Notes under the pieces: model-generated | Databases searched by the model: none | Seen by the model: only the letters and a program-made list of their open reading frames with translations | Told to the model about the DNA's origin: nothing | Program-made: the position numbers and the translations under genes | From: a virus | Taxonomy: Duplodnaviria; Heunggongvirae; Uroviricota; Caudoviricetes | Strand: one strand, 5' to 3' | DNA length: 3,901 nucleotides | IMG/VR virus record: IMGVR_UViG_2713896783_000032 | Shown here: piece by piece, positions 1,653-2,483 of the stretch | How positions within the stretch are numbered: position 1 is the first letter of the stretch | Layout of the letters: every line of letters starts with the position of its first letter

Positions 1653-2144
1653 CTACAGATTGCCGTTCAGTTTTCTGGCCAACTCTTCAATAGATGGAGG
1701 TGATACGTAATCCGGATTTTTATTCATAAGAAACTGATTTTCACAGTACAGGCACCTGCTTTTATGAAAAAATTCATATTCTCTAACCGGGAATGGCTGA
1801 AGTATCGATACTATCTTTTGTCCAAAACATTTTGGACAAAGATGCATGATTATGCTGCCGCCGTTCACGGTTACCTCCTTCGAGTACACAAAAGTTCCCG
1901 ACTCAAGTTGGCTAAGGATATAACCTTCCGTCTGAGCCTCAAAGTTTTCAAATTCTGCAATTTTAGCTTTGAGAGAAGCATTTATTTCTTGATAAGTGCC
2001 CACCAGCTCAACGAGAGACACGCATTCGCGCTGAATAGATGCAAGCTTTGAGTTCAGTTCACCAATAGCCGCATTTACTTCAGCTTGAGTTTTTGCCTCG
2101 TTCATTAGTTTTGCAATCTGGGCGGTTTCACGAATAGCCGTCAT
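1653..2144 (-). CDS. Hypothetical protein, about 163 aa: N-terminal coiled-coil-like segment plus C-terminal Cys4 zinc ribbon (CPKC-x24-CLYC); no family recognised
   Basis: ORF track 1653..2321 (-). The first 59 codons cover the repeat-rich upstream region and look non-coding. Likely start is ATG 2144..2142 (MTAIRETAQIAKLMNEAKTQAEVNAAIGELNSKLASIQRECVSLVELVGTYQEINASLKAKIAEFENFEAQTEGY...) or the in-frame GTG at 2168..2166, which has AAGAG upstream. Stop TAG is the reverse complement of plus 1653..1655. The region is AT-rich and the gene runs opposite to the PL-like operon. Confidence 0.55.
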   Translation of the reverse strand: MTAIRETAQIAKLMNEAKTQAEVNAAIGELNSKLASIQRECVSLVELVGTYQEINASLKAKIAEFENFEAQTEGYILSQLESGTFVYSKEVTVNGGSIIMHLCPKCFGQKIVSILQPFPVREYEFFHKSRCLYCENQFLMNKNPDYVSPPSIEELARKLNGNL

Positions 2145-2182
2145 TGCTGCCGTTAATTCAGCGATCACATTCAATACTCTTA

Positions 2183-2228: not shown

Positions 2229-2354
2229 ATAACGGGGACCACCTCGCCTGACGTGGTAAAAAGCAGGCACACAACACGAAAGCACACGGCGAGGGACACC
2301 ATTAAATGGTGGCTTAAGCAATCACGCGAAGCGCAATCTGCCATTATGACCGAT

Positions 2355-2404
2355 NNNNNNNNNNNNNNNNNNNNNNNNNNNNNNNNNNNNNNNNNNNNNN
2401 NNNN
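2355..2404. other. Run of 50 N: assembly gap or masked sequence; true length and content unknown
   Basis: Fifty consecutive n characters. Reading frames cannot be trusted across it. Confidence 0.95.
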
Positions 2405-2483
2405 ACTTGATGACGCCCGTTACCAGGCAAAATACGTTTCAGTTATCTGGCAAAAACTGATCCCGAGTCAGGCTGATTTTTAA
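2405..2483 (+). CDS. Possible 3' end of an unidentified gene whose start lies inside or before the N block (...LDDARYQAKYVSVIWQKLIPSQADF)
   Basis: Open frame from the right edge of the gap to TAA at 2481..2483, in the same orientation as xis and int and 61 nt upstream of the xis start. No family recognised. Confidence 0.2.

Follow-up and report, generated by a model that had tools for sequence, protein, structure and literature searches.

A predicted divergent member of the Rip1 family encoded against the early-left operon of prophage CP-933N in Escherichia coli O157:H7

Introduction

A stretch of 3,901 nucleotides from the viral record IMGVR_UViG_2713896783_000032, referred to here as the window, contains one sizeable gene on the minus strand. 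What does this gene encode, and what could it do for the prophage that carries it? The RefSeq label of its product, WP_000559928.1, is "hypothetical protein", and the name of the corresponding cluster in EDL933 is "unknown protein encoded by prophage CP-933N". The original prediction, made from the letters of the window, described a coiled coil followed by a Cys4 zinc ribbon and proposed a role in nucleic acid binding or in sensing and abortive infection. We followed up this prediction by profile, structure and genome comparisons. The gene is called rip1-like below, for reasons given with the family assignment, and positions are those of the window.

Results

Position of the gene in the prophage

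The window is found in O157:H7 chromosomes at 100% identity. It comprises the left arm of a Rac-type lambdoid prophage next to potC and matches CP-933N. The gene racR occupies nt 594–1070 on the plus strand (NCBIfam RacR, E=8.8e-74), and a ydaS/cro-like gene is divergent from it. A PL-like promoter for the early-left operon lies on the plus strand at nt 1179–1207, with TTGACA and TATAGT separated by 17 nucleotides and 11 of 12 positions matching the consensus. Palindromes of the form TAGGC..GCCTA are located at this promoter (nt 1165–1207) and between racR and the ydaS-like gene (nt 500–570), and are presumably operators for RacR. The operon continues with a ydaF-like DUF1391 gene at nt 1386–1538 on the plus strand (Pfam PF07151, E=6.6e-30; annotated as a CDS in RefSeq), the region of which is 89% identical to the ydaF region of K-12. 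The rip1-like gene is convergent with this DUF1391 gene. On its other side lies the 3′ remnant of an exonuclease gene (nt 2289–2483, plus strand), a pseudogene described in RefSeq as "incomplete; missing N-terminus" and interrupted by a run of N at nt 2355–2404, after which come xis and int on the plus strand.

The rip1-like ORF is the only sizeable minus-strand gene in this prophage arm. It opposes racR, the DUF1391 gene, the exonuclease remnant, xis and int, all of which are on the plus strand, as well as the PL-like transcription, in agreement with the predicted antisense orientation. The gene was also thought to lie between the PL-like operon and xis-int; it is in fact located within the early-left operon. 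A related prophage of E. coli C012 (locus L004), which has the same xis and int, contains dicB, ydfD and an intact exonuclease gene of 2,472 nucleotides. Compared with nt 5914–8854 of that locus, the window is devoid of dicB, ydfD and about 2.1 kb of the exonuclease gene. The rip1-like gene is near xis-int because dicB, ydfD and most of the exonuclease gene are deleted here.

The run of 50 N at nt 2355–2404 stands for 257 nucleotides in O157:H7 strain TR01 and in a related prophage, which are coding sequence of the truncated exonuclease gene. Window coordinates downstream of the run are therefore shifted by 207 nucleotides relative to real genomes. The C012 prophage also harbors, at nt 4920–5213 of L004, a shortened copy of the rip1-like gene that encodes 97 residues and is 74% identical in DNA. 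It adjoins a gene for an "ECs_2282 family putative zinc-binding protein", and looks like the product of gene decay in the same slot.

Start codon and maintenance of the gene

The ORF list and its translation show an intact minus-strand ORF that ends at nt 1653. The predicted interval of nt 1653–2144 had this end right; its start at ATG 2144 is probably displaced by 24 nucleotides, or eight codons, from a GTG at nt 2168. The CDS of RefSeq WP_000559928.1, with 171 residues, begins at this GTG. The eight added residues, MIAELTAA, are nearly invariant in an alignment of close relatives and align with the amino termini of JBD30 gp30 and HK620 HkaP, and the same GTG opens every extracted variant of the gene. 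On these grounds we take the gene to be nt 1653–2168 of the minus strand, with a TAG stop codon, and GTG 2168 is most likely the true start. Both the GTG at codon 1 and the in-frame ATG at codon 9 (nt 2142–2168) are kept in relatives, the Met at codon 9 being at least 90% conserved. Two forms of the protein may be made from these starts. In P22, the sieB/esc gene is known to give rise to two protein forms.

Compared with variants that are 94% and 69% identical, the gene has dN/dS ratios of 0.14 and 0.30, respectively, indicating that it is a genuine coding gene kept by purifying selection. Many O157:H7 genomes share the intact ORF at 100% identity, and the gene is present in 738 of 5,426 complete E. 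coli genomes. The gene was described as AT-rich relative to its neighbors. Its G+C content of 41.9% is slightly lower than the 45.3% of the window, the 50.2% of the DUF1391 gene and the 45–47% of xis and int, yet the difference is marginal and racR is close to it at 42.6%. Inside the CDS, at the first CxxC, nt 1817–1840 form a perfect 11-nucleotide palindrome with a spacer of 2 nucleotides (TTTGTCCAAAA/TTTTGGACAAA). Across this stretch hkaP of HK620 displays 74% DNA similarity.

Assignment to the Rip1 family

The original prediction could not assign the protein to a family. The protein falls in phrog_1244 of PHROGs with E=2.7e-56, a family annotated as "unknown function", and it also matches a structurally solved protein. 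A phmmer search of PDB sequences gave a single significant match, 9oox_L, "ring interacting pore 1 (Rip1)", with E=3.6e-7. A profile built from 20 relatives aligned with the same chain at E=1.6e-15, covering profile positions 8–151 of 170 and chain residues 18–160 of 164. According to its title, entry 9oox is the cryo-EM structure of Rip1 from Escherichia phage HK446 with the small terminase of Enterobacteria phage T6. When the predicted structure was compared with the PDB by Foldseek, 9oox_M and 9oox_L were the only significant matches (E of about 8e-7, probability 1.00, 28% identity), and no further match appeared below E=0.06. The alignment with 9oox_M (E=7.9e-7) has a TM score of 0.71 on the target and an rmsd of 3.6 over 120 columns. 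The profile and structure searches proposed with the original prediction thus returned Rip1 as their sole confident match.

Comparisons with phage proteins agree with this result. By hhalign the probability is 98.2% for HK446 gp37 and 98.9% (E=3.3e-17) for JBD30 gp30. A tblastn search of phage genomes detected homologs in the Mu-like Pseudomonas phages JBD30, DMS3, MP38 and D3112 (30% identity, E=2e-11), in HK620, HK629 and HK630 (hkaP; E=1e-12), and in HK446 (E=7e-6). HK446 gp37, HK620 HkaP and JBD30 gp30 are all members of phrog_1244, with E of about 1e-51 to 1e-61. When 1.84 billion cluster representatives were searched with a profile, 2,237 clusters matched at E<=1e-3, of which 582 also passed E<=1e-10; among the best 150 of the 2,237, most proteins are of 145–180 residues and are matched over nearly their full length. 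Relatives of Rip1 are reported to be widespread in proteobacteria, mostly in prophages (PMC13434031), and the 2,237 clusters fit this published spread.

Thus sequence and predicted fold together show that the protein belongs to the Rip1 family. Its identity to the characterized members is only 25–31%, so the specificity for the trigger, and even the activity, may differ. Pfam and NCBIfam returned nothing for the protein beyond sub-threshold coiled-coil noise. PADLOC-DB 2023 has no model that matches it, which is uninformative because this library is older than Rip1. A literature search found no paper on the rip1-like protein and nothing relevant on hkaP or HK446. The "Rip1" of PMC12557735 is apparently an unrelated protein, judging from the title and abstract of that paper.

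Architecture and conserved residues

The AlphaFold2 model, computed from the alignment of the 20 relatives and with a mean pLDDT of 87, consists of two N-terminal helices, a six-stranded domain with four Cys, and a short C-terminal helix. The N-terminal helical region, residues 1–79 (nt 1932–2168, minus strand), contains predicted helices at residues 2–24 and 28–79 and aligns with the helical part of HK446 Rip1. A helical N-terminus of about 90 heptad-like residues had been expected; the helices are borne out by the model, at a length of about 78 of the 171 residues. The supposed coiled coil corresponds to this region, the counterpart of which forms the pore in Rip1 (PMC13434031), and by homology residues 1–79 would be the amphipathic, pore-forming part. 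The peak hydrophobic moment of the N-terminal helices is about 0.44 per residue, similar to that of three reference proteins, which would be compatible with a pore.

Residues 84–150 (nt 1719–1919, minus strand) make up a C-terminal beta domain, a putative zinc ribbon, whose six strands are predicted with pLDDT above 90 and which superposes on 9oox_M in the Foldseek alignment. The predicted CxxC-x24-CxxC module is exact, with cysteines at 103, 106, 131 and 134 when counted from ATG 2144. In the numbering of the 171-residue protein these are Cys111, Cys114, Cys139 and Cys142, encoded at nt 1743–1838, and the same domain carries a SILQ motif. By homology with Rip1 this domain may be the sensor that binds the ring. 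An alignment of 60 diverse family members, including those of HK446, HK620 and JBD30, shows C111, C114 and C139 to be invariant, with 98% conservation of C142; conservation is at least 90% for Y83, G91, Y95 and L123 and 85–98% for the SILQ motif.

The protein ends 29 residues past the zinc ribbon. Its C-terminal tail, residues 151–171 (nt 1656–1718, minus strand), includes a short helix at residues 160–167, and the pLDDT falls to 52–78 there. It is the least conserved block of the family, with a top-residue frequency of 0.16 and an occupancy of 0.63, and HK446 Rip1 has no counterpart of it. Among close relatives, variability seems higher past the first CxxC than in the first 100 residues, as expected of a surface that determines specificity.

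The slot and its occupants

In the Rac prophage of K-12, the gene convergent with ydaF is sieB. Since sieB there and the rip1-like gene here are both convergent with a ydaF-type gene, they occupy one and the same slot, with one cargo exchanged for the other. The rip1 gene of HK446 opposes the PL operon, with N on one side and an anti-restriction gene on the other, and hkaP of HK620 is antisense between hkaQ/N and cIII; both fall within the interval from N to cIII/ral. The idea of accessory cargo in an exclusion-type slot is upheld by the sieB position and by the same antisense placement in HK446 and HK620. In JBD30, gp30 is antisense between the gene in the small-terminase position and TerL, in agreement with the published account that the Pseudomonas Rip1 locus sits between the small and large terminase genes (PMC13434031).

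Unrelated prophages, whose immunity and replication modules differ considerably, have the rip1-like gene next to the repressor gene. The check suggested with the original prediction thus came out positive: unrelated lambdoid prophages have the gene at an equivalent place among differing neighbors. No conserved partner gene was found beside it across these contexts, and it appears as a stand-alone single gene.

A 661-bp module bracketed by repeats

The gene is part of a module of 661 bp, nt 1616–2276, which includes 37 bp downstream and 108 bp upstream of it. The module is 93.6% identical to that of an E. coli PMV-1 prophage located by tRNA-Arg/folD (locus L003) and of phage PhiR49_1, and the homology to both stops at nt 1616 and 2276. 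The flanks, 108 bp upstream and about 37 bp downstream, are better conserved than the CDS and are kept where the gene has diverged to 69–74% identity.

An inverted repeat brackets the gene. Its arms of 26 nucleotides are 81% complementary; the downstream arm (nt 1626–1651) is conserved just past the stop codon, and the upstream arm (nt 2180–2205) is conserved in four variants and overlaps one copy of a direct repeat, TTGTTGTTGGGGA. This direct repeat occurs twice upstream of the gene, at nt 2183–2195 and 2216–2228. A perfect 13-mer, AATCTGGATATCC, is found at nt 1627–1639 and 2201–2213. The flanking repeats are present only in loci of this subfamily and may be operator-like or other regulatory elements, or elements related to recombination.

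The four variants display no compensatory changes between the arms of the inverted repeat that would favor RNA pairing. The conserved 5′ leader folds no better than shuffled sequence (z=+0.94), which makes a structured RNA element unlikely, and an Rfam scan of the whole window gave no match at E up to 1. A scan of nt 1200–2550 revealed no sigma-70 consensus promoter or intrinsic terminator around the gene, and expression in the lysogen thus stays putative. The only candidate promoter from a relaxed search, a weak one with TTGTTA and AACAAT spaced by 17 nucleotides (8 of 12 positions), was rejected as poorly conserved and too close to the start codon.

Discussion

A model for the rip1-like protein

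We consider it likely, from sequence homology and the predicted fold, that the gene encodes a divergent Rip1-family defence, expressed in the lysogen as a single prophage-encoded protein that acts by abortive infection. The framework comes from a review of the work of Patel et al. (2026) on Rip1 (PMC13434031) and from a conference summary (PMC12908700). Rip1 alone is not toxic, and phages escape it by mutations in the portal (Pseudomonas phages) or in the small terminase (coliphages) (PMC13434031; conference summary PMC12908700). Twelve Rip1 monomers ring an 11-mer of the small terminase (PMC13434031; PMC12908700); each touches the ring with its C-terminal half and has an amphipathic helix as its N-terminal part (PMC13434031). 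The Rip1 pore frees dye from liposomes, makes holes in E. coli membranes and aborts infection late (PMC13434031; PMC12908700).

By analogy, the lysogen would produce the rip1-like protein from a short module that belongs to this gene and opposes the repressed early-left operon; by itself the protein would do no harm. When a superinfecting phage reaches late expression, its small terminase or portal would assemble into a ring, and the Cys4 zinc-ribbon/beta domains of about 12 copies could dock round it. Docking would gather the long N-terminal helices into a membrane pore. The pore would then collapse the inner membrane, and the cell would be killed or prematurely lysed before progeny are complete. 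From the homology we infer that this protein is expressed in lysogens, forms a pore and acts against phages, and also what its trigger may be.

Other readings of the locus

The protein could descend from Rip1 and yet be inactive or repurposed, a hitch-hiking remnant in a decayed prophage. The truncated early-left operon, with its exonuclease pseudogene and missing dicB and ydfD, indicates that the prophage has decayed, so the gene could be a passenger. In addition, the related C012 prophage has only the shortened 97-residue copy, and no consensus promoter was found. Against this, the ORF is intact and uniform among many O157:H7 genomes, the dN/dS values are low (0.14–0.30), all family-invariant residues are kept, and the 108 bp upstream have changed less than the gene itself, suggesting a maintained control region. 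A remnant is accordingly improbable in our judgment, although it is the best placed of the three alternatives.

Cys4 zinc ribbons often bind nucleic acids. The protein or its gene might then be a nucleic-acid-binding regulator or an antisense-acting element that modulates the early-left operon, as would suit a Cys4 gene antisense to the PL-like transcription and flanked by conserved inverted and direct repeats. However, the protein has no match to DNA- or RNA-binding families in Pfam or NCBIfam, and Rip1 is the sole significant match; the equivalent domain there binds a ring of protein. The family is also encoded between the terminase genes of Mu-like Pseudomonas phages, where a regulator of PL makes no sense. 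We regard such a regulator as very unlikely. Of the functions first proposed, a sensor/effector in exclusion or abortive infection was broadly right, as far as homology to Rip1 can tell; nucleic acid binding found no support. The zinc ribbon is the counterpart of the domain that contacts the small-terminase ring (PMC13434031).

A SieB-type membrane protein that excludes superinfecting lambdoid phages by aborting their lytic growth is suggested by the slot and orientation of sieB in K-12 Rac and by the annotation of HK620 hkaP as a "putative superinfection exclusion protein", but this likeness is positional only: there is no match to SieB or a membrane family in Pfam at E up to 1, no hydrophobic segment (Kyte-Doolittle means of 18-residue windows are at most 0.82) and a predicted fold of helices with a zinc-ribbon beta domain, so that the reading appears already contradicted at the level of homology and has very little probability left.

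Within the preferred reading, that of a Rip1-family defence, a more specific version can be put forward tentatively. The subfamily might recognize a different oligomeric trigger, for example rings formed by the small terminase or the portal of lambdoid or Stx phages, and could also be under on/off control through the flanking repeats, like the antisense control of sieB. The identity of 25–30% to the known proteins, the subfamily's own C-terminal tail and the tightly conserved, repeat-bracketed cassette of 661 bp are the grounds for this version, which we think rather unlikely.

Implications

The analysis offers a mechanistic hypothesis for a gene labeled "hypothetical protein" in hundreds of E. 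coli genomes, and the hypothesis covers essentially all O157:H7 strains that carry CP-933N. It assigns a Rip1-type pore defence to the slot that is classically that of sieB in Rac-like prophages. An active protein would have consequences for both the phage therapy and the phage typing of O157:H7 and for the movement of Stx-converting phages. Should a different trigger or a control by the repeats prove true, the protein would influence which Stx and lambdoid phages are able to superinfect E. coli O157:H7. The boundaries of the cassette and its flanking repeats also provide a handle on how single-gene defences move among lambdoid prophages and are regulated.

Comparison with known systems

SieB of lambda, P22 and Rac is exclusion cargo expressed in the lysogen. 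The rip1-like gene shares its slot and orientation in Rac; the proteins, however, belong to unrelated families, with no sequence similarity and no predicted structural similarity between them.

RAZR (PD-T7-4), a ring-activated zinc-finger RNase, works on the principle proposed here. It is a small zinc-finger sensor that assembles on phage rings (portal, Gp77) and activates an abortive-infection effector (PMC13017515). The zinc-finger domain is the most variable part of RAZR and sets its specificity (PMC13017515), which is paralleled by the variability after the first CxxC among relatives of the rip1-like protein. In contrast, RAZR has an N-terminal zinc finger and a C-terminal HEPN RNase, and no pore-forming helices. 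The rip1-like protein gave no HEPN or DUF4145 match in Pfam, and RAZR was absent from the Foldseek and PDB sequence matches; the two are not homologous as far as tested.

HkaP of HK620 is a member of phrog_1244 (E=7.9e-51) with 29% identity to the rip1-like protein, and its gene occupies an antisense slot between N/hkaQ and cIII. It differs in its divergent sequence, and its exclusion function is annotated by position only. The Rip1 of Mu-like Pseudomonas aeruginosa phages, of the JBD30 gp30 type, is 30% identical over 89% of the length, belongs to phrog_1244 and is likewise encoded antisense. JBD30 gp30 lies in the late (packaging) region of a transposable phage, whereas the lambdoid prophage described here has its gene in the early-left region. 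Judging by the locus reported in PMC13434031, JBD30 gp30 would be the founding Rip1.

The structurally solved member is Rip1 of HK446 (gp37, YP_007111990.1). This protein and the rip1-like protein are of similar length (164 and 171 residues), both have N-terminal helices and a C-terminal Cys4 beta domain, and both fall in phrog_1244, with a profile E of 1.6e-15 and a Foldseek probability of 1.0; both genes are antisense in a lambdoid early-left operon. HK446 Rip1 with the T6 small terminase is the only pair for which binding to a ring as an approximately 12-mer is known (9oox title; PMC13434031; PMC12908700). HK446 Rip1 differs by an identity of only 25–28%, about 10 extra N-terminal residues and the lack of the 20-residue C-terminal tail. 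Its gene has N and anti-restriction neighbors, whereas the rip1-like gene follows the DUF1391 gene in a Rac-type immunity region, and the flanking repeats of the CP-933N-type cassette are not shared. The putative defence is of a known kind, that of Rip1, and the rip1-like protein is a new and divergent member of it, not a new kind of system.
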